From an uncultured delta proteobacterium (GTDB lineage: Bacteria; Myxococcota_A; Polyangia; Polyangiales; Polyangiaceae), in the NCBI GenBank assembly GCA_963841435.1, contig CAWJCS010000003.1, forward strand, positions 544,001 through 608,000: 64,000 nt of DNA, written 5' to 3'. Made by a program: the position numbers and the translations under genes. Within the stretch, counting starts at the first letter, position 1, and every line of letters begins with the position of its first letter. Positions 14 to 23,855 of the stretch are shown here, piece by piece. The notes beneath the pieces were generated by a model. That model saw only the letters and a list, made by a program, of their open reading frames with translations. It was not told where the DNA came from and did not search any database.

Positions 14-904
14 ATGAGCCACCGGAACGTCTCGGGCATCGCGCTCGCGTTTGCCACCCTAGTTCAATCTTTTCCACTGTTTGCAGCCACCGAACCGGGG
101 CCGCTCGCCGAGGCGGTCACCGAGACCCGAGCCCCCGCGAGCCTACCGCCCGACGAGCCACGCGGCGACGCGAGCGCCCAAGCGGCGCCCCAGGCCGAGC
201 CCGCACCGAGCGTGCCCGCCGAGCCCTCGAGCGTCGCGGAGCCACCCGCATCGGGCCTTGAATATAGCTCGCGTCCGGCGCTGCCGACGCCCGTGAGTGT
301 CGAGCCGGCGCCCGTGACAGGGCCGGCATACGACGGACCACAGCTGCTCATCTCCAAGCACAAAACGACGGTCGGTGCGTATGCCGGCATCGGCACCGCA
401 TACACGCACATGCTGCATCGCGACGGCGTCGTCGCGAACCTCGAGGCGGCCCTGCTCATCGAGCATCGCTTGAGCATCGGGCTCGGTGGCTACGTCTTCT
501 CGCGCACGCCGCGCGGTCCCGCCGGGCCCGACGGCGAGCCGCGTGAGTTCGGGGCCACCTACGGCGGGCTTTCGCTGCGCTACGCGCTCTACGCGAGAAA
601 CTTCCCGGTCTACGCCTCGCTCGGCGTGCTGCTCGGCGGCGGGGCCGTAGCGCTCGTCGACGAACGCTACACCCACGGAGGCTACGACGACACTCAGCAC
701 GACGACCACTGGGACAACGGCAGCGTCGAACCGTTTCTGGTTCTGCAGCCCGAGCTCTTCCTGCACGCCAACGTGACGCGCTGGATGCGGTTCGGCGTCG
801 GCGGTGGCTATCGATTCGCGAGCGCCATCGAGCGATATGATCTTGCGTCCAAGCATCTCGGCGGCGCGGTCGCAGGCGCGAACGTTCAGTTCGGCTGGCT
901 CTGA
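14..904 (+). CDS. Secreted hypothetical protein, probable outer-membrane beta-barrel with Pro/Ala-rich N-terminal linker
   Basis: Signal-peptide-like N-terminus, PEA-rich linker, alternating Gly/aromatic beta-strands, C-terminal QFGWL. Confidence 0.6.
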   Translation: MSHRNVSGIALAFATLVQSFPLFAATEPGPLAEAVTETRAPASLPPDEPRGDASAQAAPQAEPAPSVPAEPSSVAEPPASGLEYSSRPALPTPVSVEPAPVTGPAYDGPQLLISKHKTTVGAYAGIGTAYTHMLHRDGVVANLEAALLIEHRLSIGLGGYVFSRTPRGPAGPDGEPREFGATYGGLSLRYALYARNFPVYASLGVLLGGGAVALVDERYTHGGYDDTQHDDHWDNGSVEPFLVLQPELFLHANVTRWMRFGVGGGYRFASAIERYDLASKHLGGAVAGANVQFGWL

Positions 905-3115
905 CGCCGAGCCCGAACGGCCCGAACCAGGCGCTCGAAGCTCGGTCCGCCCCACAGCGCGACGGCGGCGACACCGAGAGCACCGAGCACGAGGTAGAGC
1001 GCGTATCCCGGCAGCAAGCTCGCCGTCGCCGTCACGCGGTGTCGGCCGGCGGGGATCCGCAGCGCGGGATAGCCCGGGGACACCCGCGTGAGCGTCGCGA
1101 CGGGAGCCCCGTTCAACCTCGACCCGCCAAGTCGGAAACCAGGTGACGCGCAGCACGACATCGACGGGCGTGCTCGTAACGACTGTCGCCTCGAGCAAGC
1201 CGGGCTCGAGCGCCCGGCTCGTGATGCGCGCCGAGCGGGCGTCGCAGTTGCCCGCCCGAACAGCGGTCGCGCGAATCGCTCCGGCGCCGTGCTCGAGGGC
1301 AACGAGGCGCGCCGGATCGAGGAGCCGGTCGGCGCCTTCGGGCGTTCGAAGCGCTTCGGCGAGGCGCGCGCGAAGCTCGGCTTCGCCGGCCTGCCAGCGC
1401 TCGGTCACGCAGCCCGCGCCCACGAGATCGGTCGGCGCCCGGCTCGAAAGGAGCGCGACGGCGCCGTTCTGTTCTCGAACCATGAAGCCGTCGGGGACCG
1501 TGTCGCGGCCGCCCACGAGCAGGTAGCGAACCCCCAGCGCCTCGGCACGGTCGACCGAGCGGGCGCGCGCCGGCTCCAGCCGCTGCGCGGCGAGCCACAG
1601 AATGCCGAGGTGCGAGCCGACGGCCGTCGTCGTGCCAATCGGCACGCCGCTCGCGAGCGTCAACCCGTCGCGCTCGACGCACACGCCGAGGGGTGAGGCC
1701 TCGCTCTCGTCGAACCACAGGCGCCCACCGCGCAGCGTTCCGAGCCAGCGGCGCAGGCGCTCGGGGTCGTAGCCGGGCGGTGGATCGGCGCAGGCCGAGC
1801 CGCTTCGGTCGAGCATCGCGGCCGGGTCCTCGAGGTAACGAAGGCGGCCGGGCAGCGCGAAGCACGAAAGCGCGCCGAGCAGCAGCGCCACCACGAGCGG
1901 CGCGCGCGGGGCGAGCCACTTCGGCCCGGCGCGCGAGAGGAGCGCCCCGACGAGCGGCGCCGCCTCCTCGGCGGCAACGGCGACGACGGCGGCCGCGAGC
2001 GGCGGCAGCAACGCGAGCGCTCGCAGGGGCTGAAAGACCGAAAGCAACGCGTGGCCGAGCGCGCCCGAAGCGGAAAGCAGCGGCCCGCTCGCGCCGAGCA
2101 GCACGGCGGCCGCGCTCGCACCGACGAGCGCGCGCGAAGGCGGCGACCGATACCCGAGCGCGAGCACGACGAGCGAGGCGCCCGCGAGTGCCGTGAGCAC
2201 TGGAACGTCCGAGCGATAGTCGAAGAGGTCGCCGTCCAAGAACCACCAGCCGAGACGCGAGGTGCCGAAGCCCAGCTGCCGCCAGCCGAACCCCGGAGGC
2301 CAACCGAACGGGACGTCGAGCGCGACGATGCCTTGGCCGTAGAGGGCGAGCGCCGTGGCGACGGCGCTGAGGCCGGCTCGAGCGAAACGTTTCAGAGCCG
2401 AGGCTCGGCCGCTCGCGAGCGCTCCCGTCCCCGTGACGGCGAGCGCGCACGCCGCGAGCTCGGGGTGCGCGGCCACGCTCAGCGCGGCGAGCACGGCCGA
2501 GGCCACGTTGCCGCCCGTGGCCACGGCACCGGCAAGCGCAATGACGAGGGGAAGCGCCACGACCTGCGAGACGAGACCCGAGGTGAAGAACGCGTCGTAC
2601 CCGCCGACGAAGGGGTTGTACGGATTGACCCACGAGAGCACCAGACCCCCGAGCGCGGCGAGCTCCGGCCGCCCCCCGGCTCGCACGAGCACGGCGTAGA
2701 GCGTGAGCGGAGCCGCGAGCGTCGCCACGAGCCCGAGCAGCAGCGTAGCGAGAGCGGGCTCGACGCCGAGGCGCATCGGTGCCGCCAGCAGCAGCCAGCC
2801 GAGCGGCGGGTACTGATGGGCGAAGGGAAAGCCGCCGAGATAGGTGTCGAGCCAGCCGTGCGGCAAACCGCGCCGTGCCATGTCGAGCGCCACGCGGGCG
2901 TGCGAGGTCGCATCGCCGAAAAACACGCGCGACGCTCCCCGCGAGAACGGCGAGACCCGGACGAGGGGAAACGCCGCGACCAGCACCGTCGCTGCACCGA
3001 GGCCGATCGCGCGCGCACTGCGTCGTCCGAGCCAGGCAGGGGGCGCCTCGCCACCCACCCGCCGGACGAGGAGCGCCCCGCTCAAGATCGCGACGAGCAA
3101 GAGCCCGAAGAGCAA
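886..3115 (-). CDS. Polytopic membrane protein, PTPS-related/YfhO-like (GT-C fold glycosyltransferase candidate); +1 frameshift near 1115
   Basis: GDATSH...GWLDTYLGGFPFAHQYPPL N-terminal motif and many TM helices in ORF 143..3250; C-terminus VLRVTWFPTWRVEV continues as NGAPV...RIPAGRHRV plus a last TM in ORF 886..1302. Start uncertain (TTG 3115 or ATG 3226). Confidence 0.65.
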
Positions 3116-3232
3116 GCGACGAAGGTAGCAAAGCGGCGGGGGCCCCCGGGCGGGTCCCCACTCAAATTCGGGCGAAACCGAGGGCCGGAACGGCGGTTGA
3201 GCCTTTCGCGCCGGGTCGGGGTTCATCCATCC

Positions 3233-5152
3233 GTGGCAGGCAGGTTCCACTCGCTATCGGTGGTTCTGGGCATTTGTGCCCTCGGCTGCACGGCGCAGGT
3301 GTCCCGTGAGGGCGAACAGCCTACGGGCGCGGGGGCGGCGAGCGGCTCGGGGGCCACCACCGGCAGCGGCGGGTCCGCCATGGGCAGCGGGGGCTCGGGC
3401 GCGTCCTCGGGAAGCTCCGGCAGCGCGGGAACGAGCGGGCAAAGCTCGAGCGGCGGCTCGAGCTCGGGGTCCGGGGGCTCGAGCGCCGGCAACCCTCCCG
3501 TCGGGCCGACTTCGTTCGCGTGCGATGCCGCCGCCGTGCCGGACAGCCCGGCGATGCGACGCCTCACGCACGCGCAGTACGAAAACACCCTGACGGATCT
3601 GCTCGCGTTCGCGCTCGGTAGCCGGAGCGACGCGCTCGCCGTGACGAGCGCCGTCGCGTCCGACCTCGAGACGCTGCCCAACGAAGAGCGCCCGAAGATT
3701 GCGGAGGACCTGCGCGGCACCTACCGGCGTCTCGATCAGGGCCTCGCGCAGGGCCACATCGACAGCTGGTACGCCATCGGAGTGCGCGTCGGCGCCGAGC
3801 TCACGACGCCCGCGCGGCTCGAGACGGTCGTCGGCAGCTGCGCGACGGACGGCTCACCGGCGGCGGCGTGCGTCGACGCCTTCATCGACCGCTTCGCGGC
3901 GCGTGCGTTCCGCCGGCCGCTCGACGACGCCGATCGCGCGCTGTTGCGCGGCTTTTACGGCGATACGAACAGCATCGATCCGCTCGGCTTCGCCGATCTG
4001 ATCGGCGGCATCCTCAACGCCCCCGACACGCTCTACCTCATCGAGAGCGGCGCTAACGCGGTCCCGGGTGCGGCCGGCGTGGTCGAGCTCGACCCCTTCG
4101 AAACGGCCTCGCGACTCTCGTACCACTTCTGGGACACCCTTCCCGACGACGAGCTCTGGCAAACGGCCGAGGACCAAAGCCTGCTCGACGACGCCGTCTA
4201 CTCGCGCGAGGTCGATCGACTGATCGCGGACCCGCGCGCCAAGAGCTCGCTCCGCAACTTCTACCGCGAGTGGCTCAAGCTCGAGGATCTGCCCCCGCTC
4301 GACCAGGCCAACGGCGTGCCGAACTACGACGCGTTCACGGGAGACGACCAGCCGAGCAGCATGCTCACGACGAACGTCACGGGCGAGGTGCTCGACCTGC
4401 TCGACTACTTCAGCTGGAGCGAGCCCTCGGGCCTCGACACCGTGCTCACGACCGAGCTCCTGCTCCCCAAGACCGACGATCTTGCGAAGCTCTACGGCGT
4501 GTCGCGGAGCAGCAACCCCGTCGCGGCCCCGAACGACGACCGGCCCGGCCTCTTCACGCGCGTGGCCTTCCTCGCCACGGGCAGCTCGAAGACCAGGCCC
4601 ATCAAGAAGGGCGTCTTTTTACGGGAAAATATCCTGTGCGACGAGATCCCACCGCCGCCCGCAGGCGCGTCCTCGAACCTGCCGGAGCTGCCGCCGACGC
4701 TTTCGACGCGCGAGGTCGTCGAAACGCTCACCGCGTCGGGCACGTGCGCCGGCTGCCACGCGCAAGCGATCAACCCGCTCGGCTTCCCCACCGAGTCGTA
4801 CGACGCGCTCGGACGCTTCCGCACCGAGGAGATGCTGTTCGACGCCGACGGCAACCTGATCGGCACCGCGCCCGTCGACACGACGAGCGTCCCCCAGATC
4901 GTCGAAGGTGACCCCACCGAGGTCGCGAACGCGGCGGAGCTCATGAGCCTCGTGGTGGCGAGCGGCAAGGCGAGTGCCTGTCTCGCACGTCACTACTTCC
5001 GCTACTCGTTCGGACGCTGGGAGAACGTCGCGAAGGACGGCTGCGCGCTCGAAGCGCTGCGCTCGGCGCTCGTCGATTCGGACTCGCTCACGGCGATGGT
5101 GCGCGCCGTTGCGTTCGCGCCCGATTTCCGGCATCGCACGATCGTGGAGTAA
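3233..5152 (+). CDS. DUF1592-family lipoprotein (DUF1587/1595/1592/1588 architecture) with CxxCH heme-c motif
   Basis: Lipobox ALGC, Gly/Ser linker, MRRLTHAQYENTL, FAARAFRRPL, ASRLSYHFWDTLPDDEL, RPIKKG, CAGCH...INPLGF. Confidence 0.85.
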   Translation: MAGRFHSLSVVLGICALGCTAQVSREGEQPTGAGAASGSGATTGSGGSAMGSGGSGASSGSSGSAGTSGQSSSGGSSSGSGGSSAGNPPVGPTSFACDAAAVPDSPAMRRLTHAQYENTLTDLLAFALGSRSDALAVTSAVASDLETLPNEERPKIAEDLRGTYRRLDQGLAQGHIDSWYAIGVRVGAELTTPARLETVVGSCATDGSPAAACVDAFIDRFAARAFRRPLDDADRALLRGFYGDTNSIDPLGFADLIGGILNAPDTLYLIESGANAVPGAAGVVELDPFETASRLSYHFWDTLPDDELWQTAEDQSLLDDAVYSREVDRLIADPRAKSSLRNFYREWLKLEDLPPLDQANGVPNYDAFTGDDQPSSMLTTNVTGEVLDLLDYFSWSEPSGLDTVLTTELLLPKTDDLAKLYGVSRSSNPVAAPNDDRPGLFTRVAFLATGSSKTRPIKKGVFLRENILCDEIPPPPAGASSNLPELPPTLSTREVVETLTASGTCAGCHAQAINPLGFPTESYDALGRFRTEEMLFDADGNLIGTAPVDTTSVPQIVEGDPTEVANAAELMSLVVASGKASACLARHYFRYSFGRWENVAKDGCALEALRSALVDSDSLTAMVRAVAFAPDFRHRTIVE

Positions 5153-5154
5153 AG

Positions 5155-6706
5155 ATGAAGCGGCGGCTCGTCACCCGAAGGCAAGTTTTGATCGGCACCG
5201 GTGGCTTCACGCTCGGGCTGCCGTTTTTGCCGTCGCTCCTAGCGGGCCCGGCCTACGCGCAGCAGGCGACGTTCATCCGCCAGCCGCGCTTCTTCACCCT
5301 GGCAACGCAACACGGCGGCGTGAAGGAAAGCGCGATGTTCCCCGACGACGCCGTGCTCACGGCGTCGGAGGACATCTACGCCGGCCACACCATCCGCCAC
5401 GGCGCGCTCGTGCGCACGGCCTCGGGCGGTCGCGCGTCCGTCGCGGGCATCCTGAGCGGCGCCGACGACGTGCTCACCGACGCGCTCGTCGCGAAGATGA
5501 ACGTGCTCCGCGGCATCGACATCCCCTTTTACATTGCGCACCACACGGGCGGCTACCTCGGCAACGAGTCGCGCAACGACGCCAACGCGGGCGACCTCGG
5601 CATGCCACCCATGCCGACCATCGATCAGCTCATGGCGTGGTCGCCGAGCTTTTACCAGAATCTCGACAGCGTGAAGATGCGCTCCGTCATCACGGGCTCG
5701 CGCGGGCGCATCTCGTACATGTGGTCGAACGCCTCGGAGCGCACGGGCTCGATCGACGAGGTCCGGCGCAGCGACAATGCCAAGGATCTCTTCAACGCGG
5801 TGTTCGTGCCCGACGACCCGACGGAGCCGACGGCGCCGCCCAGGCCGCTGATCGTCGACCGCGTGATCGAGAGCTACCGGAGCCTGCGCCAGTCGAACCG
5901 CCGTCTCGGCGCCGCGGATCGGCAGCGCCTCGACGATCACCTCGACCGCCTCGCCGAGCTCCAGCGCCGGCTCAACGCCAAGCCCGTGCAGAGCGCGTCG
6001 TGCGGCGCGCTCAGCGAGCCCACGAGCGGCAGCGACTACCGGTCGCAGATGGTCGCACTCGTCGATGTCGTCGTCGCGGCGTTCCTCTGTGGCACGAGCC
6101 GCATCAGCGTCATGGGCCTCGACGAGTCGCGCTTCGTCGCGGACAACGCCGACTGGCACCAGAGCGTCGCGCACCAGTACTTCACCGACGCCGCGCAGGC
6201 GAAGCTCCAGGAAGCGAACCAGAAATCCTTCGAGTATCTGTTCCTGGACCTCGCGAAGAAGCTCGAACGTCGAGGAGGCGCCCGGCGTGACCGTGCTCGA
6301 CGATTCGCTCCTGATGTGGAGCCAGGAGAGCGGCTCCGAGACGCACCAGTCGCGCTGCATTCCGATCGTCACGTTCGGCGCCGCCGCGGGCAAGCTCAAG
6401 ACCGGCAACTACATCGACTACCGGAACCAGAGCAGCCGCGCCATCGTCAACTTCTGGGGCGACGACCTCGGCCCCACGGGGCTACTCTACGCGCAGTGGC
6501 TCGCGACGATCCTGCGGGCGATGGGCGTTCCCCAGAGCGAATGGCAAGACGTGCCGGGCAACGCGACGACGGGCTACGGTTTCAGCACGAAGTGGGTCAC
6601 CGGCGTCGAGCCGAGCCCAGGCGATGCGCTCGGCACGTACGATCGCACGTACGTCGCCGGCGTCACCGAGAACGCGAGCGAGTACCTGCCGCTGCTCGAG
6701 GCGTGA
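5155..6706 (+). CDS. DUF1552-family Tat-exported protein; +1 frameshift near 6266
   Basis: TRRQVL..LGLPFLPSL Tat-like signal, DRQRLDDHLDRL, WHQSVAH, then other frame TVLDDSLLMWSQESG..H...P; starts 2 nt after the DUF1592 gene. Confidence 0.8.
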
Positions 6707-7599
6707 CGCGGCGCGCGCGCGCGTGCTTCGCGGCTCTATTCGCCCTCGTCGGTTGCGGGTCGGAACGTGCCGCGCCACTCGAGCCGTGCGGAGGCGCGTG
6801 CCTGTCGCGCGAGGAGGCGACCTGGCCCATGCCGAACCCGGGGACCTTGCCGCTGCCGAACCCCGCGCGTGTCGAGGTTTCGAGTGCCACGGCGCGCGAC
6901 GCAGTGACGGGCCTGGTGTGGGCACGCGAAAATGGCGAGCTCGTCACGGCGAGCGATGCCGACGCCGCGTGCGAGACGCTCACCCTCGAGGGTGAAGACG
7001 ACTATCGGCTACCCACGCGTATCGAGCTCGTCTCGCTGCTCGATCGCACGGTGCGCCCGACGCTCGACGGCGTGGCGTTTCCGGGCACGCCTCTCGACTA
7101 CTTCTGGACGAGCTCGAGCGTGCCCGGCATCCCGGGGGCGCGCTACAGCGTGTACTTCGGCGCGGGCGAAACGTCATCGGGCAGCGAGGACGCTCCGAGC
7201 GCCTACGCGCGCTGCGTGCGCGGTGGCTCGCGACGCGGAGCGCCACGCTTTCGCAACGACGCGACGAGCGTCCTGGATCTCGGTACGGGTCTCGAGTGGC
7301 AGCGGGCCGCTTCCGAAAGCGCGCTCTCGCTCGCGGCGGCTCGGGCGCTCTGCACCGGGCTCGAGCCCGGCGAAAATCCGTTCCGCTTGCCGAGCGACAA
7401 GGAGCTCGAAACGCTCGTCGACACGACGACCGGCGGAGGGCCCCCGCTCATCGATGCGGCGGCGTTTCCCGAGACACCACCGACGACGTTCTGGACGCTC
7501 GTCGTCGACCCCATCCCGCCGCTCGTCGTTGATTTTGCCACGGGGTTCGCCAGCGTGGCCGACGCGAGCGGCACGCACCGCGTGCGCTGCGTGCGCTAG
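6703..7599 (+). CDS. Lipoprotein with two DUF1566 (Lcl C-terminal) domains
   Basis: GTGA overlap with upstream stop; LVGC lipobox; two copies of D..TGL.W...C..L.....RLP...EL.SL/TL...FP.TP...FWT...RCVR. Confidence 0.8.
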   Translation: MTRRARACFAALFALVGCGSERAAPLEPCGGACLSREEATWPMPNPGTLPLPNPARVEVSSATARDAVTGLVWARENGELVTASDADAACETLTLEGEDDYRLPTRIELVSLLDRTVRPTLDGVAFPGTPLDYFWTSSSVPGIPGARYSVYFGAGETSSGSEDAPSAYARCVRGGSRRGAPRFRNDATSVLDLGTGLEWQRAASESALSLAAARALCTGLEPGENPFRLPSDKELETLVDTTTGGGPPLIDAAAFPETPPTTFWTLVVDPIPPLVVDFATGFASVADASGTHRVRCVR

Positions 7600-7618
7600 G
7601 CGCCGTGGCTCAGGCGCG

Positions 7619-8842
7619 TCACGGCGCGCAGTCCACGAAGTCGACCGTGTACGCGATCTCGGTGCTGATGCCGGACAGTGTGACGCTGTAGCTCTGCCCC
7701 GCCGCGGGGTTCCAGCCGTTCGGCACCATACGGATGCCGTTCGTCGAACCGTAGTTGCCCGTGAGCGCCGAGACGTTGACGGCGACGCTCGAGCCGCCCG
7801 AGGTCACGCTCACCGTCGCCTGTGCGAGCTGGATGCGCTCGCTCTGCACCGACCAGCCCGTGCTGCCGAGGCCACCGCCGCGACCGCCACCGTAAGCCTG
7901 GAGCGGAAACGCGCCGGGCGGCGGCCAGGCGACCCACTCCTTGCCCGCCTTGCCCGTGCCACCGATGTTCTGCATGCACGAGGCGCCGTTCGGCCCCGTC
8001 GAGCCGAGCCCGATCGGGCCGAGCCAGTTCGAGAGAACGATGCGTCGGTGCCCGAAGGTGGTTTCGTTGCCAGTGTCCGTCAGGTAGGCGTTGACGCTCG
8101 AGACGCCCGGCCCACCCGAGATGTTGCTCGTCGACGAGCCCTGCGCACCGAGATCGGTGTAACAGTCCCAGCTCATCGGCGGCTCGTGGGAGAGCCCCGA
8201 CGCGCGCCAGTTCGCGGCCTGCATGAGCGCGCAGGCCTGCGCCATCTCGTTGCGATCCGGCGACGTCTCGACGGCGGGCAGATCGGCGAGCCAGCGGTAG
8301 AGATTGAAGAGACGAAGCGCGTTGTCGCGCCCCTCGGCAGAGATGTCGCCCGGGTCGCACGTGTTGACGCTGCCGGTCCAGGCTCCTTCGCTCATGTTCG
8401 CGCGGTCGGCATTCCAGCGCGCGCACGTCCCCTCGGCGCTGCGATCGGTCGTGACGGGCGCGCCGGCCGAGCCGCTCGCGCCGGCCGCGCCCGAGCCGGA
8501 CGAGGAGCCGGCGAGCCCACCCGTGCCCGCGATCCCGGCCGAACCGCCGGAGCCCGCGCCCGCACCGGCCGCATCGGTCCCGGCTCCGCCGCCGAGTCCG
8601 GCGCTCGGCATGCCGCCGGCACCGGGCGCCGTGCCGCCCGTACCACCAACGTTCAGCGAGCCGGCGGCGGAGCCCGCAGAGCCGGCAGACCCGCCAGAGC
8701 CGCTCGCCATGGTCCCACCGCTCCCCGCGCCGCCGACGCCCCCAGTCGGCGCTGGCAGCTCGCCGGTCGTTTCCGACGAGCACGCCGCCAAAAAGACCAG
8801 GACGAGGGTGGTCCACCCCTTCGAAAGCTGTGGCATGGCCAT
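7619..8842 (-). CDS. CAP/SCP-domain lipoprotein
   Basis: LAAC lipobox, Gly-rich linker, NLYRWLADLPAV, AQACALM, LSHEPP, GHRRIVL. Confidence 0.75.
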   Translation of the reverse strand: MAMPQLSKGWTTLVLVFLAACSSETTGELPAPTGGVGGAGSGGTMASGSGGSAGSAGSAAGSLNVGGTGGTAPGAGGMPSAGLGGGAGTDAAGAGAGSGGSAGIAGTGGLAGSSSGSGAAGASGSAGAPVTTDRSAEGTCARWNADRANMSEGAWTGSVNTCDPGDISAEGRDNALRLFNLYRWLADLPAVETSPDRNEMAQACALMQAANWRASGLSHEPPMSWDCYTDLGAQGSSTSNISGGPGVSSVNAYLTDTGNETTFGHRRIVLSNWLGPIGLGSTGPNGASCMQNIGGTGKAGKEWVAWPPPGAFPLQAYGGGRGGGLGSTGWSVQSERIQLAQATVSVTSGGSSVAVNVSALTGNYGSTNGIRMVPNGWNPAAGQSYSVTLSGISTEIAYTVDFVDCAP

Positions 8843-8862
8843 GGGCTCTTCTTCGGAGTGGC

Positions 8863-10875
8863 ATGCCGCGGCGCGCATCGATCACCTTAGTGTTGCTCGG
8901 CCTCGGCCGGCAGGCGTACGCGGAGCCAGCGGGGGCACGACCCGCGGAGCCCGTCGAGGTCGAAGTTCGGGGTACACCGTCGTCACCTGCCGTCGCCCGC
9001 AAGGACGAGAGCGTCGCCTCGAGTACGCTCGAGCGCGATTGGCTCGAGCCACCGGGGCTCAGCGCGCCCGACGTGCTGCGCACCGCCGTGGGGGTCACGG
9101 TCACGGAGACGGGAGGCCTCGGTGCCGCGTCCACGGCGTCGGTGCGTGGCGCGACCGCGTCGCAGACGCCCGTCTATCTCGCGGGCGTGCGCCTCAACGA
9201 CGACGTCGGCGGAGCGGCGGACCTCGCGATGGTCCCACTATTTTTGATCGACCGCATCGAGGTGTACCGCGGCAACGCGCCGCTCGAGGCCGACCGATTC
9301 GGCATCGGAGGGGCGATCTTCTTCGAGCCGATTCGCCCGCGAGCGCCCCGCGTACGGATCGGCGGGATGGCCGGGAGCTTTGGCAGCCGCGCGGCGTGGG
9401 CCGCAGCCGGGACCCAAAGCAGAGGGACGAGCCTCCTAATCGGCGCGCGCTTCGAGGGGGCCGACAACGATTATCCATTTTACGACGACCGCGGCACGCT
9501 CGAAACCACGGCCGACGATCGCCGCGAGCACCTCCAGAACGCCGACGCCGCGCTCGTCAACCTCTGGCTCGTCGGTCGGCAAACCGTCTCCGAGGGTCGC
9601 ATCGACGTCGTCCTCAATCGGTTCGAGCGCGAAAAGGGCGCCCCGGGGCTCGCCAACGTCGCGACGACCGAGGCCCGAACGAGCGCGAGCCGCACGCTCG
9701 CGGCCGTCTCCGGCTTTGCCCCCTTCGCGGGCGAAGCGTCCCTCGAGGCGCGCACGACCTTCCTCGAGGCGAGCAGCACGCTCACCGATCCACTCTATCG
9801 TCCGTCCATGAATCCCGGCGAGCTCGGCCTCGGCACCGATCGCGTCGAGTCCCGAGGTGACCGGCTCGACGAGGAGCTCGCGCTCACGGTCCCGCTCGGA
9901 GCGGCGAGCTCGCTCCGCGCGCGCGCCGAAGCGAGCCACGAGCGACTGAGGCGCTCCGAGGGTGAGGCGGCGGAGCCGGTGCTCGCCGAGCGGCGTGTCT
10001 CGGCACGCCTGTCCGCGGCGGCGGCGCTCGGCGTGGCCCCGCACCTCTCCGTACGACCGCTCGCGGCGCTCGAATGCCACGCCACGGGCGCCCACGCCGA
10101 CGCGACGTGCGACGTTCTCGAGCCGACTGCACGGCTCGGTGCGCTCGCGACGCTCGGCGAGCTTTCGCTGTTCGGCGGTGTGGGTCGGTACGTGCGCGTG
10201 CCGACGCTCGGCGAGCTCTTTGGCACGTCCGCCGTCGTGCGCGGCCAGCCGAGCTTGCGGAGCGAGGCGGGCGTCACCATCGACCTCGGCGCGCGGTACG
10301 CGACACGGCTGCCCGGGGAAACGCGACCGCTCTACGCGGCGCTCTCGGGCTACCTCAGGAACGCGCGCGATCTCATCACCTTCGTTCGCACCGCGCAGAG
10401 CACGATCGTGCCCATCAACCTCGGACGAGCGAGCGTGCGCGGGCTCGAGCTCGAGGCTGGGACGGGCTTTCTGCGCCATTTCCAGGGCGACCTAGCGCTC
10501 ACGCTCTTCGATGGCCGCGACGAGACCCCCGGGCGCACGCTCTTGAACGCGCGCTTGCCCTACCAGCCGCGCCTCGTCGTCGCCCCCGGCGTACGGGCCG
10601 AAACGCCGTCGCTCGGCACGTTTCCCGTCGAGCGCGCCTCGCTCGGTGGTCGGCTCGTCCACGAATCGAGCCGCTACGCCGACCCCGCCGGCCAGTCGGT
10701 GATCCCGGCTCAAACGACGGTCGACGTCGACGTTGGTGTCGAAGGGCTCGGGCGCTCAGCCATCCTGCGCGCGCGCGTCGGCGATCTCTTCGACGCGCGA
10801 CGCTACGACGTTGTCGGCTTCCCGCTGCCGGGCCGGACCTTCTTCGTGTCGCTCGAGCTCGGCAACGGTCAGTAG
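8863..10875 (+). CDS. TonB-dependent receptor, BtuB-like (probable cobalamin uptake)
   Basis: Signal peptide, plug motifs SVRGA..QTPVYLAGVRLN and IDRIEVYRG, RVPTLGELF, GLELE, C-terminal PLPGRTFF; next to cobalamin-riboswitch operon. Confidence 0.8.
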   Translation: MPRRASITLVLLGLGRQAYAEPAGARPAEPVEVEVRGTPSSPAVARKDESVASSTLERDWLEPPGLSAPDVLRTAVGVTVTETGGLGAASTASVRGATASQTPVYLAGVRLNDDVGGAADLAMVPLFLIDRIEVYRGNAPLEADRFGIGGAIFFEPIRPRAPRVRIGGMAGSFGSRAAWAAAGTQSRGTSLLIGARFEGADNDYPFYDDRGTLETTADDRREHLQNADAALVNLWLVGRQTVSEGRIDVVLNRFEREKGAPGLANVATTEARTSASRTLAAVSGFAPFAGEASLEARTTFLEASSTLTDPLYRPSMNPGELGLGTDRVESRGDRLDEELALTVPLGAASSLRARAEASHERLRRSEGEAAEPVLAERRVSARLSAAAALGVAPHLSVRPLAALECHATGAHADATCDVLEPTARLGALATLGELSLFGGVGRYVRVPTLGELFGTSAVVRGQPSLRSEAGVTIDLGARYATRLPGETRPLYAALSGYLRNARDLITFVRTAQSTIVPINLGRASVRGLELEAGTGFLRHFQGDLALTLFDGRDETPGRTLLNARLPYQPRLVVAPGVRAETPSLGTFPVERASLGGRLVHESSRYADPAGQSVIPAQTTVDVDVGVEGLGRSAILRARVGDLFDARRYDVVGFPLPGRTFFVSLELGNGQ

Positions 10876-12134
10876 GCGCCGAGATCGCGAGGCGGCAGAC
10901 CCACCGTGCCCGCCACGCCGAGCGTGGGCAGCGGCGAGAGCCCGTCCGGCGTGATCGAGAAGCGCATCAGCCCGCCACGATCGGCGTCAGCGACGAGGCA
11001 GGTTTGGGCGCAGCCTGGAGTGCAGAGCAGCCCCCCGAAGGCCACGCCAAGCCCACCCTCGTCGCCGGCGCGGGCCTCGGCAAGCATTTCGGCCGCACCG
11101 GACGCGAGATCGAGCGAAAAAAGGCGATTGTTCGCGCCTCCCGCGAGCGCCGTCTGAGTCTTCACGAGCAGGCCGTCCTCGGCGAAGAACGCCACGTTCG
11201 ACTGCAGCGGCGCGCCAGCGATGTCGATGGCGGCGTAGCGCGCGATCTCGCGCGGCGGCGCCTCGGTGACGTCGAAGAGCACGACGGCGCTCTCGCTCAC
11301 GTCGGCGGGCACACCCTCGCGGTCGATGTACCCCGTGCAGGAGAGCGCGGCGCGTCGAGCGCTCGGCGCGAGCGTGACGGGTCCGCAGTTCTTGAGCCCC
11401 GCGACGGGAAGCGTGAACGTCACCGACTCGCGGTCAACGTCGACACCGACGACCCGCGCTTCTCCCATCGACTTTACGTCGAGGCTCGCGCGTTGCAACG
11501 TGACGAGCACGAGGTCGCCGACGAGAGCGAGGCCTGCCGGGCGCGGGGGGAAATTGCCCTCGTCGGGCAGCGGGATGCGAGAAAGCAAGCTGGGGCTCAG
11601 CGTGTCGATGACGAGCAGATCGCCGCCGCCGTCGAACGGCTCCGAGCCCGGCGTCGGGTCCTCGCCCCAGCGCGAAACGACCGCGCGATCGCCAGAAATC
11701 TCCAAATAATCCTGGGGGTTGGACTCGAAGCCCGTGCCGACGGCAAGCTGCCCGAGCGCGCGCCCCGAGGGTGCTTCGAAGAAGCTCACGACGTTCGTGC
11801 CGTATCGATCGACGAGCACGACGCGCCCGGAGCGCGGGGGTGTCGTGGGCACGACAACGTCACCGGAGAGCGGCAACGCGAGCGCCGACGCTCCCGTCCG
11901 CGCGCTCGAAGCGAACGAGCCGCAGAGCGTGTCGCCGTCGAGCTTCGTCAGCGCGACCTGCGTCGAGACGTAATCGCTCATCACGACGACGGCCGCTGCC
12001 GGGCATCCCGGCGGCGCGTCGATCGTCGCCTCGCAGTGGTCCTCGGCGGTGGGAGAGACGTCACAGCCGCCGAGCAGTGCCGCCGCGAGCAAGAAGCCCG
12101 AGGCACTGGCATGGCGCGAGCCCGCACGCGTCAC
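10869..12134 (-). CDS. Lipoprotein, probable beta-propeller (YncE-like), third gene of B12-riboswitch operon
   Basis: LGGC lipobox; repeated short beta-strand blades (VVLVDR, NPQD, LLVIDT, VVGVD, VVLFD, LFSLD); GTGA overlap with upstream gene. Confidence 0.55.
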   Translation of the reverse strand: MTRAGSRHASASGFLLAAALLGGCDVSPTAEDHCEATIDAPPGCPAAAVVVMSDYVSTQVALTKLDGDTLCGSFASSARTGASALALPLSGDVVVPTTPPRSGRVVLVDRYGTNVVSFFEAPSGRALGQLAVGTGFESNPQDYLEISGDRAVVSRWGEDPTPGSEPFDGGGDLLVIDTLSPSLLSRIPLPDEGNFPPRPAGLALVGDLVLVTLQRASLDVKSMGEARVVGVDVDRESVTFTLPVAGLKNCGPVTLAPSARRAALSCTGYIDREGVPADVSESAVVLFDVTEAPPREIARYAAIDIAGAPLQSNVAFFAEDGLLVKTQTALAGGANNRLFSLDLASGAAEMLAEARAGDEGGLGVAFGGLLCTPGCAQTCLVADADRGGLMRFSITPDGLSPLPTLGVAGTVGLPPRDLGAY

Positions 12135-12805
12135 GGCGCCTCGTCCGAGCCGACGTGGATGACGCCCACGGCGTCCAAATCGAAGCCCGCTGTCGGCTCG
12201 GCGCCCGCGTACGACACATCCGTGATCCGCACGAAGCGGGCGCGCGCCACGCCGATTTCGGCGAGATCGAACGCGTCGCCGCCCGTGATGGCCGGGTCGA
12301 GCGGCACGAGCGCGGACGCATCGTAGACGAGTGTCGGCGTCCAGCCCGCGCAGCCGGGGAAATGGCCCTCGCCGTCACCCGCGGAGACGCAGGCGAAGCC
12401 CGTCCAGCTGTCGCCGTCGTCGCTCACCTCGACGGCCCCGGGCTCGGCGAAGACCTGGCTCGCGCTACCCCCTGGCCAGAACGCATTTTCGAACACGACG
12501 AAGTCCGGCCCGTCACCGTCGACGATGGCGCGCGTGCCGAAGCCGACCTCGATGCTGCCGCCCTTGCCGAGCGACAGCACGTCGAGCGAGCCGACCTCCT
12601 GCCCCCCGCCGCGAGGCGGCCCGAGCACGATGTCCGGCAAGCGATCTTCGCCGAAACCGGCGCTGTCGCCCGGCTCGAAGCTCACGACGGCGCTCGCGTA
12701 GGGCGCCGTCGGTTCGGTGTCCGACGAATCCGAGCCTGCGCCACAACCCATGACGAGCGCCGTCACGCTCGTCGCAAACACAATCCCGCCACGCGGCGTT
12801 TTCAT
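12131..12805 (-). CDS. Cell-surface lipoprotein, BtuH-like candidate cobalamin-binding domain
   Basis: VMGC lipobox; SLGKGGSIEVGF...IVDGDGPDFVVFENAF...EPGAVEVSDDG...FDLDAV motifs; ATGA overlap with upstream gene. Confidence 0.6.
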   Translation of the reverse strand: MKTPRGGIVFATSVTALVMGCGAGSDSSDTEPTAPYASAVVSFEPGDSAGFGEDRLPDIVLGPPRGGGQEVGSLDVLSLGKGGSIEVGFGTRAIVDGDGPDFVVFENAFWPGGSASQVFAEPGAVEVSDDGDSWTGFACVSAGDGEGHFPGCAGWTPTLVYDASALVPLDPAITGGDAFDLAEIGVARARFVRITDVSYAGAEPTAGFDLDAVGVIHVGSDEAP

Positions 12806-13368
12806 CGTCGCGTGAGCTTCGTCCAGGCGAAGCCGCCGCAGCCCATCTCCCCGGGGTGACTGTCGTCGGCGGCCGTGTCGGCGGCGCGGGCCTGCTCGAG
12901 CGTGTCGAGGCCGAAGTCCGTCGTGCAGTAGTAAAACGCGTCGCCGTCGATCTCGGTCCACACGATGCGATTGAAGAGCGACGGGCCGAACTCCGCGTCG
13001 TCGGGATTCTGGGTGATCGCGACGTTGTCGTCGTTCGAGAACGAGGCAATCGTCGCGACGCTTTCGCCCACGCCGGAGTTGACCGACCAGGAAACGTCGT
13101 CGATCACCTCGATGCTGCCGAAGTCGCCGTCCCAGGTCCCGTCAATCTCGAGCGAAGCGGTCTCGCCCCCGCTCTCGCCTCCCTCGCCGCTCGCGCCCGG
13201 TCCGGCGCTACCGCCGGAGCCGCCCGTACCCCCCGAGCCACCGCCAGACCCGCCACGGCCGGCGCTCCCCCCCCGTTCGATGGGTTGCGCGTCGTCGTCA
13301 CCCCCGCATGCCGGGAGGGCGAGAGCCAGCGAAAGTACACCTGCGATTGGGATCCATCTCGTCTTCAT
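12802..13368 (-). CDS. Hypothetical lipoprotein, first gene under cobalamin riboswitch
   Basis: GAGGAG RBS, LPAC lipobox, Gly linker, compact acidic domain with FYYC and GCGGFAWTKL. Confidence 0.75.
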   Translation of the reverse strand: MKTRWIPIAGVLSLALALPACGGDDDAQPIERGGSAGRGGSGGGSGGTGGSGGSAGPGASGEGGESGGETASLEIDGTWDGDFGSIEVIDDVSWSVNSGVGESVATIASFSNDDNVAITQNPDDAEFGPSLFNRIVWTEIDGDAFYYCTTDFGLDTLEQARAADTAADDSHPGEMGCGGFAWTKLTRR

Positions 13369-13486
13369 CGAGCGTCACTCCTCGCCGGTCTGCCGCCGGC
13401 TCGGTGGCGCCACGATTGAAGGACGCGGATCGCACGAACCCTTCGTGCTTCCACGCCTCCATCAACCGTGGGGCTGTCGTGGTCGC

Positions 13487-13651
13487 GGACGAAGGAGGTA
13501 TCCTGGCTCTCGGATGGTGGACTCTGCTCGGCCTTCCCCGGTTTCCCGAGTGGCCCGGCCGCGACGGTCAGTCGCGCCCGATGGCTTCGTCGTCTCCGAT
13601 GACAGTGGCGGGACCGCGCCGGATTCGCACCGGCTTCCCTGACCTCCGTCC
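13487..13651 (-). promoter_or_regulatory. Cobalamin (B12) riboswitch
   Basis: Minus strand reads AGGGAAGCCGGTGCGAATCCGGCGCGGTCCCGCCACTGT...GCCACTCGGGAAACCGGGGAAGGC...GAGCCAGGATACCT (B12 box); terminal GGACGGAGGT pairs with ACCTCCTTCGTCC. Confidence 0.95.
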
Positions 13652-13773
13652 GACTATCGCGTCATTGATTTCCGCCCGTCCCATACACGCGCCGCAGACC
13701 GCGCGTCAAGGGCCCACGGGGGCAAGCGCCGCGCGGCAAGGCCCGCGGAGCCCTGGAACGAGGCAGCCCGCGG

Positions 13774-14505
13774 TCAGCCGAGACCGAGCGTTTCGAGCTC
13801 GTCTTCTTCGAGCCCGAAGTAGTGCCCGATTTCGTGCAGCACCGTGATCTCGACCTCGTGCGCGAGATCCTCCTCGTCGTCGGGATCGACGAACGCGAGC
13901 AGGTTTGCCGCGTAGAGCACGATGCGAGTCGGCATTCCGGCCGAGTCGCCGAGCTGTCGCTCCTCGTTGACCGGCCCTTCGAAGAGCCCCAAACTTCGGG
14001 GGTCGAAGCGGTCGCGCACCAGATCCTCGCTGGGGCGAGCCTCGATGACGATCGGCACGCCGATGAGCCGCCGTCGAAACTTGGCGGGCAGCTCGTTGAG
14101 CACGCGCTCGGCGGTGTCACGAATGCGCGCCTCCACTGCGTCCAAGTCGAAGCCGTCCGCAGCGTCCGCGGCGGCGTCGAGCCGGCGCACGGCCAGTAGC
14201 TCGCGCGCGCACGCGTCCAGGTCCCCGAGCTCCTCGCATAGAAGGGCCAGCGCGTGCCTGGCCTCCGCGAACTCGGGCTCCCGTCCCACGAGCTCCTCGA
14301 GCGCCGTTCGCCCGGCCTTCGGCCCCTTAGCGAGGGCAATGGCGCGCGCCCGCGCGAGCCGCACCTCCGGGTGCGCGGCCGATTCGGGGTTCGCGCGCTC
14401 CGCGATATCGAGCGCTGCATTTGCGTCGCTCTGCAGACGCTCCTCCACGTCCAGGACAAGGTCCAGTACCTCCTTGTTCAACTGGCCCGACGTCGCGTGG
14501 GGCAT
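13774..14505 (-). CDS. Zincin-like metallopeptidase (Zincin_1/DUF1025 type) with TPR-like N-terminus
   Basis: LGLFEG, PTRIVLY, TVLHEIGHYFGLEEDEL (HExxH); helical repeat N-terminal half. Confidence 0.8.
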   Translation of the reverse strand: MPHATSGQLNKEVLDLVLDVEERLQSDANAALDIAERANPESAAHPEVRLARARAIALAKGPKAGRTALEELVGREPEFAEARHALALLCEELGDLDACARELLAVRRLDAAADAADGFDLDAVEARIRDTAERVLNELPAKFRRRLIGVPIVIEARPSEDLVRDRFDPRSLGLFEGPVNEERQLGDSAGMPTRIVLYAANLLAFVDPDDEEDLAHEVEITVLHEIGHYFGLEEDELETLGLG

Positions 14506-14652
14506 TTTTGTCGCCACCCTTAACTGTCGCTACTGTCCAGCAATATTGCAAGCACACAAGGCGAACTGAAACGCCACGGACATCACTTTTTATGGTGCCC
14601 GCTGTAGGAATGCTCCTTACGGCTTCTTACTATCTCGTACCTCGTCCCACAC

Positions 14653-16032
14653 TCAGCCAGTCGGCTGTTTTTCGATCAGCGAGCGAAACCGCGCGATCGA
14701 CTCGGGATCGGCGCGCAGCGAGACGTGCACGCCGTCCTCCTCGTAGCTCTGGCTCTCGACGCGACCTGCGTCGTGCATCATTGCCACGACCGACTGTCGG
14801 GAATACGGGACGACGAGCTCCGCTCCGACGTAACGGGTTTCGAAGAACCGCACGATTCCCTCGCGAACGAAGCTCACGCCCGCCGGATCGCGCGCGCTCA
14901 CGAACCAGGCGTCCGGGCGCGCCTCGCGCAGGGCCGCGAGCTCCGCCGGCGAAACGCGATCGATCTTGTTCATGACGAGCAAGCTGGGGACCCCGTCGGC
15001 GCCGATCTCGGCCAGGACCTCGCGCGTCACGCGCTCCTGACCCTCCCAGCTCGGATCGGCCGCATCCACGACGTGCAAGAGTAGCGACGCTTCGAGCGCC
15101 TCGTCGAGCGTCGACTTGAAGCTCGCGACCAGATCGTGCGGAAGATTCCGGATGAAGCCGACGGTGTCGCTCACGAGGATTCGCGGCCGCGTTTCGGGTT
15201 GCAGGGCACGCACCGTCGTGTCGAGCGTCGCGAACAGGCGATCTTCGACGGTGACGGGGCTCGCCGTGAGCGCGCGCATCAACGACGACTTTCCGGCATT
15301 GGTGTAGCCCACCAGCACCACGCGCCGCGTCGAGCGCCGCTGCGCGCGGCGCGTCCCCTGCTCGCGACCGAGCGCGTCGAGCTTTTGGCGTAGCTCCGCG
15401 ATGCGATCGCGAATGCGCCGGCGATCGAGCTCGATGGCAGCTTCACCCGCGCCCCTGCCGGCCTGGCGTTCCTTGCCCGATGGCGATTCCCGCACGCGCG
15501 GCGCCAGGTATTTGAGTCGTGCCATCTCCACCTCGAGGCGCGCCTCGCGGGTGCGCGCGTGTCGGTGGAAAATCTCGATGATCACGCCCGTGCGATCGAG
15601 CACGGGAACGCCGGCCGCGTGCTCGAGGTTGCGGGCCTGGCTCGGCGTGAGCTCGTGGTTGACGGCGACGAGCGCAATGGCCGAAGGCTTGGGCGAGACG
15701 TTGCCGGCGGGCTCCGTCTGGTCGTCGTCGGCTGTCGCGGGTCCTTCGCGATCGGCGCTGTCGCGCGCCTGGCGCGACTTGCCCGTCTTGCGCCCGCGCG
15801 ACGGATGCGGGCGGCCGGTGCCCCCCGTGAGCTCGGCGAGCTCTTTGAGCTTGCCCTCGCCGAGCACGGCGGCAGGCGAAAGGCTGATGCGCGGTTGGGT
15901 GACGCGCGCCACGGGTTGGTAGCCGAGCGTCGTCACGAGACGCTCGAGCTCGGCGAGGCTCGCCGCCTGCTCCTCGTCGTCCATCGACGGCAGCGCCACA
16001 CCCACGATCACGGCGCGCGGCGCTTCTTGCAT
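14653..16032 (-). CDS. hflX: GTPase HflX
   Basis: ELTPSQARNLE, DRTGVIIEIF, GYTNAGKSSL, LFATLDTT, DTVGFI, NKID. Confidence 0.93.
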   Translation of the reverse strand: MQEAPRAVIVGVALPSMDDEEQAASLAELERLVTTLGYQPVARVTQPRISLSPAAVLGEGKLKELAELTGGTGRPHPSRGRKTGKSRQARDSADREGPATADDDQTEPAGNVSPKPSAIALVAVNHELTPSQARNLEHAAGVPVLDRTGVIIEIFHRHARTREARLEVEMARLKYLAPRVRESPSGKERQAGRGAGEAAIELDRRRIRDRIAELRQKLDALGREQGTRRAQRRSTRRVVLVGYTNAGKSSLMRALTASPVTVEDRLFATLDTTVRALQPETRPRILVSDTVGFIRNLPHDLVASFKSTLDEALEASLLLHVVDAADPSWEGQERVTREVLAEIGADGVPSLLVMNKIDRVSPAELAALREARPDAWFVSARDPAGVSFVREGIVRFFETRYVGAELVVPYSRQSVVAMMHDAGRVESQSYEEDGVHVSLRADPESIARFRSLIEKQPTG

Positions 16033-16091
16033 GGCTCGCCCGTGCGTAGCACGCACCCGCAGGGGGCGGAACTCGCCTGGAAGGCCGGCGC

Positions 16092-17096
16092 TCAGCGCGT
16101 GAGCGTGAGCTCGTCCACTTTCTTGCCGTCGCTCGTCACGAAACGGAGCGAAAGCTTTTCGGCACTGACCTCCAAGAACAGGGCACCGTGATGCTCGTTG
16201 AAGCGCAGGCGGCTGCCCTCGACGGGGGCCTCGAAGGCGTAGGGCGAGTTACCGCCGAGGCCGTTGACGACGTAGGTGACGCCTCCGACCTCGAGCCGCT
16301 CGTAGTCGTGGTCATGACCGGCGAGCACGAGGTCGATGCCCCAGGCGCGGTAGGGCCACTGCATCACGGGCGTGGAGCCGTGAGGGCCGGACGAGTACGG
16401 CGGGTGGTGCATGTAGGCGATGCGGAACGCCGCACGCGACGCCACGGCGCGCTCCTTCAACCAGCGTCCCTGCGCGCTGTCGGCGGTGATGCCGTCCGGC
16501 TCGTGCGGATCGCTGTCGATGGCGAAGAGCTCGACGTTGCCCTCTCGGACGGAGTAGTAGCGCTCGTTGCCGGGAAGGGTGAAGTAGTCGAAGTAGGGGC
16601 GCGCGCCCGGTGCGAGCCAGTCGTGGTTGCCGAGCGCGGGAAAGAAACGATTCTTCGTCCCGCCGGGGCCAAAGCGCCCTCGGTACGGCGAGATCAGCGA
16701 GGCGTAGAAGCGCCCGACGTTTTCGTCGATGGTGTTGGCGCCACCGGAAGGGTAGTTGTTGTCGCCGAGCGTGATCACGAAGTCCGGCTTGTCGGCGAGC
16801 ACGAGGGCAGCGACGCGGCGCTCGTCGTCGCCGCTCGCGCCGAAGTCGCCGATCGCGGCGAAGCGCACGCTGCCGGGCCGCGACTCCACGAAAGGGCGCG
16901 GGAGCACGCTCGCCGTCGCTTTTGGAGCCGGCTTCGGCGCCGACGCCTGGGCGGCGAGCTCGGGGCGCGCCTCGCTGACGCGCTCGGCGGGCGGCGCGCG
17001 GCGGCACCCACCCGCAACGCCGAGGGTCCCGACGACGAGCGAAGCGAGAACGGCGCACGACACGGCGGCTCGACGAGCGCGAGATGAGTGCGTCAT
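16092..17096 (-). CDS. Secreted metallophosphoesterase (purple acid phosphatase-like)
   Basis: IGDFG, LGDNNY, GNHD, HHPPY, GHDHDYER; lipoprotein-like N-terminus. Confidence 0.88.
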   Translation of the reverse strand: MTHSSRARRAAVSCAVLASLVVGTLGVAGGCRRAPPAERVSEARPELAAQASAPKPAPKATASVLPRPFVESRPGSVRFAAIGDFGASGDDERRVAALVLADKPDFVITLGDNNYPSGGANTIDENVGRFYASLISPYRGRFGPGGTKNRFFPALGNHDWLAPGARPYFDYFTLPGNERYYSVREGNVELFAIDSDPHEPDGITADSAQGRWLKERAVASRAAFRIAYMHHPPYSSGPHGSTPVMQWPYRAWGIDLVLAGHDHDYERLEVGGVTYVVNGLGGNSPYAFEAPVEGSRLRFNEHHGALFLEVSAEKLSLRFVTSDGKKVDELTLTR

Positions 17097-23844: not shown

Positions 23845-23855
23845 GAGAGTTAGCC

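Follow-up and report, generated by a model that had tools for sequence, protein, structure and literature searches.

A predicted BtuB-BtuG-type corrinoid capture locus with a cobalamin riboswitch in a Polyangiaceae-like myxobacterium

Transporters for vitamin B12 in which a propeller-fold lipoprotein forms a lid on a BtuB-type TonB-dependent receptor have so far been described only in Bacteroidota (gut Bacteroides). The closest known system to the locus treated here is BtuB-BtuG of Bacteroides thetaiotaomicron, with BtuH or BtuJ as further lipoproteins (PDB 8bmx, 8blw, 8p97; PMC6143338, PMC10404256). BtuG was reported as exclusive to Bacteroidetes by BlastP (Wexler, 2018; PMC6143338). Homologues of BtuH and BtuJ outside Bacteroidota are discussed in a 2026 review, which also describes the metal and B12 contact residues of BtuH2 and whose passages on distribution do not mention BtuG outside the phylum (PMC13616437). 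DUF4465, the BtuJ family, was reported in Myxococcota among eight clades (PMC13398666). A search of open-access papers and preprints gave no report of a myxobacterial BtuG-like system. The present locus lies in a stretch of 64,000 nucleotides (nt), called the window, of the Polyangiaceae assembly GCA_963841435.1 (contig CAWJCS010000003.1, positions 544,001 to 608,000, forward strand). It comprises a cobalamin riboswitch, three genes for lipoproteins 1, 2 and 3, and a convergent gene for a BtuB-like receptor (Table 1).

This locus is probably an outer-membrane module of the BtuB-BtuG type for capture and uptake of corrinoids (vitamin B12) in a Polyangiaceae-like myxobacterium. As in Bacteroides, a gene for a BtuB-type TonB-dependent receptor stands beside a gene for a propeller-fold lipoprotein, the cassette has a cobalamin riboswitch, and the prediction is that the lipoprotein covers the barrel from the extracellular side. 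The locus differs from BtuB-BtuG in its phylum, Myxococcota, in a propeller without detectable sequence similarity to BtuG and ~80 residues longer than the matched BtuG chains (421 aa vs 321-343), in a convergent receptor gene without a riboswitch of its own, and in the lack of btuFCD. By every computational test run, the system would work like BtuBG; by sequence it is not a member of that family. The initial annotation of this DNA had proposed an analogous lipoprotein-assisted scavenging of corrinoids in Myxococcota, and the proposal is supported by the riboswitch, the BtuG-like fold of lipoprotein 3, the affinity of the receptor to BtuB, the model of their complex and the gene linkage. Its suggestion that B12 might be stripped from prey is pure speculation.

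The riboswitch is real, with very high confidence. Infernal matches RF00174 at 64.8 bits (gathering score 31.5; E 9.8e-14) over the full model (1-189 of 189), and this is the sole Rfam match in the window. Twelve riboswitches, the one in the window and 11 of related loci, went into the nhmmer profile A3, which finds the aptamer as well (13650-13479, E 6.9e-29), partly by construction. The initial annotation had thus rightly placed a cobalamin riboswitch ahead of the three lipoprotein genes, but its stretch (8863..13651) stops ~18 nt short of the 5' terminus of the aptamer. The leader is stabler than its shuffles (-70.1 kcal/mol, z -3.6) and contains a long hairpin with no U-tract after it; no terminator-like site is predicted there on the minus strand. 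GGAG is found ~10 nt 5' of the ATG of lipoprotein 1.

The genes for lipoproteins 1, 2 and 3 follow the riboswitch in this order on the minus strand. The first two are joined by an ATGA overlap at 12805-12802 and the last two by a GTGA overlap at 12134-12131, and the stop codons of lipoprotein 3 and the receptor overlap tail-to-tail by 7 bp (TCAGTAG, 10869-10875), all as noted before. Lipoprotein 1 has the signal peptide MKTRWIPIAGVLSLALALPAC, with the lipobox cysteine at its end; the signal peptides of lipoproteins 2 and 3, read from the sequence, end in VTALVMGC and AAALLGGC, respectively, also with the lipobox cysteine. None of the three lipoproteins matches a Pfam family at E <= 0.1 or an NCBIfam model for BtuF/C/D or a B12 enzyme, which agrees with the earlier statement that they are none of these.

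Lipoprotein 3 belongs to a large family without a name. In the word index it has 314 homologues, which are either without a name or called 'hypothetical'; the named ones come from Polyangiaceae. An exhaustive profile search gave 890 representatives at 50% identity (E <= 1e-3), 456 of them with E <= 1e-30. The AlphaFold2 (AF2) model, made with 51 sequences, is all-beta with 26 strands of at least three residues (predicted local distance difference test, pLDDT, 88.3; predicted template modelling score, pTM, 0.87); the blade number is taken from the strand list and the seven-bladed matches, not counted on coordinates. In the Foldseek search of PDB, B. thetaiotaomicron BtuG-family chains take the four best places, in keeping with the analogy to the Bacteroidota system proposed at the outset. 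First is 8bmx_D (E 5.8e-10, template modelling (TM) scores 0.58/0.71), followed by 8ptd (BtuG1), 8bn0 (BT1954) and 8okv (BT2095), and the top 30 include more BtuG entries and the xenosiderophore lid XusB. Sequence identity in these matches is ~13%. A language-model feature search, in which only named Atlas clusters were considered, gave Bacteroidota DUF5074 and XusB (0.90-0.91, 175-180 shared features), and serves as a lead only. DUF5074 is the family to which we take BtuG to belong; it is not among the 25 Pfam families shown of the 35 matched by 111 representatives of the lipoprotein 3 family.

The receptor has the Plug (PF07715, E 1.4e-14) and TonB_dep_Rec_b-barrel (PF00593, E 8.5e-20) domains. 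When the single sequence is compared with PDB, B. thetaiotaomicron BtuB3 and E. coli BtuB are closest (E ~1e-12, confined to the plug region); BtuB2 and BtuB1 come next, and haem receptors reach ~1e-5. The profile A4, built from 47 receptors (that of the window and those of 46 loci), gives E. coli BtuB at 1.1e-29, BtuB3 at 4.7e-28, BtuB2 at 2e-27 and BtuB1 at 1.5e-22; the BtuB1 alignment covers almost the full length. After a gap follow the colicin I receptor (3e-14) and PqqU, YncD and haem receptors (1e-9 to 1e-7). Ten of the 11 best distinct PDB sequences for A4 are BtuB proteins, nine of them so named and one, 8bmx_C, a BtuB2 chain by the title of its entry; the eleventh is an unnamed TonB-linked receptor, 9gbc_A. 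Among solved structures, therefore, both the single sequence and the profile group the receptor with BtuB and not with iron or haem receptors, as predicted at the outset. E. coli BtuB (1nqe), its best profile match and likewise composed of a plug and a 22-strand-type barrel, works without a lipoprotein partner.

Binding of the receptor to lipoprotein 3 is supported, as a prediction, by a model of the complex, which had been suggested as a check. With receptor residues 51-670 (alignment A4) and lipoprotein 3 residues 44-421 (alignment A1), the interaction prediction score from aligned errors (ipSAE) was 0.62, 0.66 and 0.66, and 0.00 in all three controls. The contacts agree to at least 92%, with a partner pLDDT of at least 86. 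Of 157 solved pairs used for calibration, 116 attained the mark set for ipSAE, as did two of 215 mismatched ones; with custom alignments this calibration holds only roughly. Eight receptor segments, spaced ~50 residues apart, make the contacts (206-215, 263-269, 311-325, 457-464, 508-518, 559-562, 606-614, 648-654). In TonB-dependent receptors the loop between the last two strands is extracellular, and segment 648-654 falls between the final two strands, so lipoprotein 3 would cover the receptor from outside like a lid. On lipoprotein 3, the interface holds more of the residues invariant in A1 than expected (16/47 vs 6.8, p 2.4e-4), among them the C-terminal GLPP motif.

The position of lipoprotein 3 bears on a different arrangement, in which the lipoproteins face the periplasm from the inner leaflet of the outer membrane or from the inner membrane, and act after the receptor as BtuF-like carriers or chaperones of corrinoids, with no surface lid. 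Surface-exposed lipoproteins are not the default outside Bacteroidota and spirochaetes, the locus is without a btuF-like gene, and the conserved cysteines of the lipoproteins fit either compartment. The periplasmic arrangement is nevertheless quite unlikely, given that the complex model, by topology, puts lipoprotein 3 on the extracellular loops with controls at 0.00, and that its best fold relatives, BtuG and XusB, are surface lids. Also, LIC_13355 of Leptospira, distantly related to lipoprotein 2, reportedly occurs in the outer-membrane fraction, with a small amount at the leptospiral surface (PMC11891782).

The link between receptor and propeller is conserved. A scan of species-representative genomes with the A1 profile gave 59 related loci from Polyangiaceae, Polyangiales and unclassified myxobacterial metagenome-assembled genomes, and from eight complete genomes of Sorangium, among them So ce56 and So0157-2; the two peptide patterns of the scan are specific to fairly close relatives, and the counts say nothing on more distant taxa. 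Neighbouring genes were found by tblastn with the window proteins. A receptor gene adjoins the propeller gene in 54 of the 59 loci, which bears out the expected co-occurrence. It is directly upstream on the same strand in 51 and convergent downstream, as in the window, in three (L001-L003). In Sorangium cellulosum So ce56 (L031) the receptor gene is at 5989-7983 and the propeller gene at 8001-9200. Of the five loci without an adjacent receptor, two are truncated by the end of their contig and a third contains a run of N. A cobalamin riboswitch precedes the first cassette gene by 121-379 nt in 36 of 47 assessable loci, the 12 with <400 nt of upstream sequence being left out; all nine of these 36 that were scanned by Rfam are positive, and the other 27 rest on nhmmer (each E <= 1.1e-20). 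In 33 loci the receptor belongs to the cassette that follows the riboswitch on the same strand. The placement of a BtuG-type system is thus found both in the window, where the receptor adjoins the propeller and the riboswitch heads the lipoprotein operon, and in most relatives. Receptor and propeller are functional partners with high confidence, and the balance of the results favours a corrinoid as their substrate and the propeller as a surface lid.

In the related loci the ancestral layout is riboswitch, receptor, propeller. In a quick maximum-likelihood tree (IQ-TREE) of 56 propeller sequences, the window propeller groups with L001-L003 (95), and their sister L004 has the collinear order of receptor and propeller, so the layout of the window is a derived rearrangement. 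In it the receptor is inverted away from the riboswitch, and the genes for lipoproteins 1 and 2 stand between riboswitch and propeller. L002 and L003, scanned whole, have one riboswitch only, before lipoprotein 1. Seven of the ten loci negative by Rfam form one clade (SH-aLRT, the Shimodaira-Hasegawa-like approximate likelihood ratio test, 100) that sits within clades with a riboswitch, which points to a single main loss. Two deviating arrangements were seen: in L013 a riboswitch (7542-7746) directly precedes the propeller gene (8001-9227), with no receptor within 8 kb, and L029 and L022 are a long-branch pair without adjacent receptor and without riboswitch.

Several results weigh against a corrinoid module of this type. 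On the propeller side, unrelated seven-bladed propellers trail BtuG in the fold search by one to two orders of magnitude (E 1e-8 to 1e-7), and with generic propellers so close behind, the fold match alone discriminates only modestly. The three sequence routes from lipoprotein 3 to BtuG failed: the A1 profile against PDB sequences found no BtuG at E <= 10 (best E 0.06, an unrelated protein), Pfam gave nothing for the protein itself, and the 111 family representatives showed no consistent Pfam family, 11 of them weakly matching PQQ_2. On the receptor side, the BtuB equivalog cut-offs are missed by a wide margin (TIGR01779, 69.9 vs 599.7 bits; NF007926, 63.2 vs 836), and the best NCBIfam score is slightly higher and belongs to the myxochelin receptor MxcH (85.4 bits, cut-off 925). 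By these curated criteria the protein is called BtuB-like only, not a member of the BtuB family. A degenerate riboswitch was looked for before the window receptor, but 7500-9000 gave no Rfam match at E <= 1. The pass of the complex model may come partly from likeness to solved BtuBG complexes. Enrichment of invariant residues in the interface is not significant with A5, the broader lipoprotein 3 alignment (8/32, p 0.07), or on the receptor side (13/105, p 0.18). The riboswitch is absent from ten assessable loci by Rfam at the gathering score, and from an eleventh, L022, by nhmmer only. No btuFCD, B12-enzyme or cobalamin-synthesis gene lies within the window. For lipoprotein 2, the matches to BtuH are in the twilight zone (TM 0.46-0.47, root-mean-square deviation (rmsd) 7-13 A).

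Some of these results would fit true receptor-propeller partners that import a cargo other than complete corrinoids, such as a cobalt complex, a corrinoid precursor or another metallophore, the riboswitch tying their expression to B12 status as it does for B12-independent isozymes. Besides the MxcH score and the 11 assessable loci without a riboswitch, the high rank of the siderophore lid XusB in both the fold and the Atlas search with lipoprotein 3 is in line with this, as are riboswitches in the same Sorangium loci that head nrdAB, which is no transporter. Against it, A4 separates BtuB from siderophore and haem receptors by at least eight orders of magnitude in E-value, all NCBIfam scores are so far below their cut-offs that MxcH is no assignment, BtuG outranks XusB in the fold search, and no cobalt or siderophore genes are present within the window. 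The XusA-XusB xenosiderophore system of Bacteroides (PDB 9hqk, 9hqe) likewise joins a propeller lipoprotein to a TonB-dependent transporter, but it has a siderophore substrate and no cobalamin riboswitch, whereas here the receptor is BtuB-like and the cassette riboswitch-headed. Import of a cargo other than complete corrinoids appears improbable.

Corrinoid binding by lipoproteins 1 and 2 is the weakest part of the corrinoid-capture reading and is held with low to moderate confidence. Lipoprotein 2 represents an unnamed family of 2123 clusters. It matches the NCBIfam model of the LIC_13355 lipoprotein (NF033170) at 51.7 bits (cut-off 120, E 6.7e-14), and all 46 of 46 relatives match the same model below the cut-off. 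Its AF2 model is a beta-sandwich (pLDDT 77). For a relation to BtuH, raised in the initial annotation, the fold matches are weak: the first Foldseek match is 8blw_B, a BtuG1 chain (E 2.1e-5, query-normalised TM 0.46, rmsd 12.8), and BtuH2 (7biz_B) appears at rank 33 (E 7.6e-3) with the highest query-normalised TM, 0.47. The 8blw_B chain was reported to carry a fused BtuH domain (PMC10404256). CBM32 and discoidin domains come next after 8blw_B, at ~1e-3. Like BtuH and the BtuH fused to BtuG1, lipoprotein 2 is riboswitch-headed and encoded beside a propeller; unlike them, it gives weak scores, and CBM32/discoidin jelly rolls score nearly as well. The sequence routes led nowhere, as the A2 profile of lipoprotein 2 matched no PDB sequence at E <= 10, and hence no BtuH, and the 46 relatives had no Pfam match, with 0/46 for BtuJ/DUF4465 (PF14717). 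The window lipoproteins do not match DUF4465 either (Pfam, E <= 0.1). A BtuG1-like fusion of lipoprotein 2 and propeller was considered and set aside, the sole long representative (P0378, 684 aa) having an N-terminus that by eye looks like an over-extended open reading frame (ORF) and not like the domain of lipoprotein 2; no such fusion was found, longer forms not being searched systematically.

The jelly-roll matches are relevant to a further explanation, in which lipoproteins 1 and 2, instead of binding corrinoids, would bind glycans or matrix at the surface and have only the operon in common with lipoprotein 3, which alone would serve the receptor. The 32 fold matches of lipoprotein 2 ranked above BtuH2 are, save 8blw_B, mostly CBM32/discoidin carbohydrate-binding modules, and in vitro binding of LIC_13355 to laminin, plasminogen and endothelial cells has been reported (PMC11891782). 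Moreover, homologues of lipoprotein 2 occur in eight and those of lipoprotein 1 in two of the 59 loci, and most receptor-propeller cassettes are without them. On the other side, in the loci with a lipoprotein 2 homologue, the riboswitch heads its operon in L002, L003, L056 and L059, and L053 and L041 carry one upstream on its strand; L034 has none on the strand and L057 is cut off. In L056 and L059 the order is riboswitch, lipoprotein 2, receptor, lipoprotein 3. Furthermore, the top fold match is the BtuG1 chain with its BtuH domain, and BtuH2 has the highest query-normalised TM. A glycan or matrix function of lipoproteins 1 and 2 is regarded as rather doubtful.

Lipoprotein 1 has a Gly-rich linker and a Trp-rich C-terminal domain of ~115 aa with two conserved Cys. 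Only 27 homologues were detected, some with the domain in tandem, and the Trp are conserved; the Atlas search gave unnamed clusters only, below 0.9. The NCBIfam family LIC13354_fam (NF047669) matches it at 29.3 bits (cut-off 130, E 9.2e-7). Since the NCBIfam matches of lipoproteins 1 and 2 are significant and below the cut-offs, the two proteins are, as judged from their sequences, distant relatives and not members of the LIC13354 and LIC_13355 families. LIC13354 and LIC13355 are reported as neighbouring genes in Leptospira interrogans (LA_4202/LA_4203; PMC5348505), so that two neighbouring genes, matched by lipoproteins 1 and 2 respectively, occur in both organisms. Both were reported as induced ~3.7-fold in a host-adaptation model (PMC3953431), and the LIC_13355 lipoprotein, with the binding and location given above, is described as an adhesin (PMC11891782). 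In these respects the Leptospira pair differs from the genes of the window, and the passages on it in PMC3953431 and PMC11891782 make no link to B12.

In the mechanism that we infer, B12 would repress the operon, and at low cellular B12 the riboswitch would allow the three lipoprotein genes to be expressed. The lipid-tethered propeller, lipoprotein 3, would form a surface-exposed lid over the extracellular receptor loops, would capture corrinoid and hand it to the BtuB-like receptor, and import would be driven by TonB energy. Lipoproteins 1 and 2 may be accessory corrinoid binders that supply the lid, comparable to BtuH or BtuJ of Bacteroides. A broader proposal is tentative: lidded B12 transporters would extend beyond Bacteroidota, with a sequence-unrelated or anciently diverged lid in Polyangiaceae and two corrinoid-binding lipoproteins as an extracellular relay, and Leptospira LIC13354/LIC_13355 would serve corrinoid capture too, because lipoproteins 1 and 2 are their distant relatives. 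If true, the lid-on-BtuB architecture arose or persists in a second phylum, outside the gut, and unannotated families (890 propeller representatives, 2123 lipoprotein 2 clusters) would obtain names and a testable function. It would also give a handle on competition for corrinoids by large-genome soil predators, which are routinely grown with added B12, a component of standard myxobacterial media (PMC12919014).

Table 1. Features of the candidate corrinoid capture locus, in window coordinates
Feature	Position	Strand	Basis or remark
Cobalamin riboswitch aptamer (RF00174)	13477..13669	minus	Rfam
Leader / expression platform	13369..13476	minus	between aptamer and first start codon
Lipoprotein 1, 188 aa, lipobox LPAC	12802..13368	minus	ORF
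Lipoprotein 2, 224 aa, lipobox VMGC, beta-sandwich domain	12131..12805	minus	ORF + AF2
Lipoprotein 3, 421 aa, lipobox LGGC, predicted BtuG-like beta-propeller	10869..12134	minus	ORF + AF2
TonB-dependent receptor, BtuB-like, 670 aa from ATG 8863	8863..10875	plus	alternative GTG start 8830

The GC content of the window is 69%, and that at third codon positions (GC3) is 0.82-0.85 in the receptor and all three lipoprotein ORFs, as expected of real genes. Next to the receptor, a divergent gene for a Gly-rich lipoprotein (7619-8842, GC3 0.88, no Pfam match) has its likely start at 8842 or 8836. With ~20 bp between this start and the receptor ATG at 8863, the promoter of each gene must lie inside the other gene. 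A scan of 8500-14000 found no sigma-70-like promoter, which is uninformative for a GC-rich organism. Where the propeller and receptor genes converge and overlap (10800-10950), neither strand has a predicted terminator-like site, and transcription of the derepressed lipoprotein operon might continue into the receptor gene in antisense.

Cobalamin riboswitches near the related cassettes also precede other genes. In Sorangium loci a second riboswitch heads the class I ribonucleotide reductase genes nrdA/nrdB, for example in L031 (riboswitch 13028-13243, genes 10260-12776 and 9244-10302, all on the minus strand), and likewise in L026, L033, L051, L053 and L039. A riboswitch on a class I ribonucleotide reductase is the usual pattern, by which the B12-independent isozyme is repressed. 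In L053 a riboswitch (16454-16669) is followed on the minus strand by a gene for a 602-aa secreted dockerin-repeat protein (14549-16357) and by one for a homologue of lipoprotein 2 in which the Gly-rich linker is long (13374-14552); judged by its coordinates, L041 is arranged similarly. Riboswitches also stand before lipoprotein genes in L034 (10257-10391 before 10483-11895, plus strand) and L039 (10584-10720 before 9142-10716, minus strand). These 470- to 524-aa lipoproteins are 67% identical, have no Pfam family and may be another B12-linked lipoprotein family. The 602-aa protein of L053 and the 470-aa protein of L034 were rejected as paralogues of lipoproteins 1-3, as BLASTP and hidden Markov models gave no significant similarity.

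Elsewhere in the window, two pairs of large genes (2051-7599 and 21514-25316) each have one member with DUF1585/1587/1588/1592/1595-type domains and another with DUF1552 or DUF1501; the second gene of the 2051-7599 pair carries, in addition, an Lcl C-terminal domain. At 143-3250 (minus) and 2051-5152 (plus), two long ORFs of gene-like GC3 overlap each other; the former has no Pfam match and may be spurious. Genes for extracytoplasmic function (ECF)-type sigma factors and NrsF-like anti-sigma factors are present (regions 58404-59102, 61637-63023 and 40120-40770), together with several glycoside hydrolases (GH5 cellulase, GH63-like, glycogen debranching enzyme and pectinesterase), which fits a polymer-degrading soil myxobacterium.

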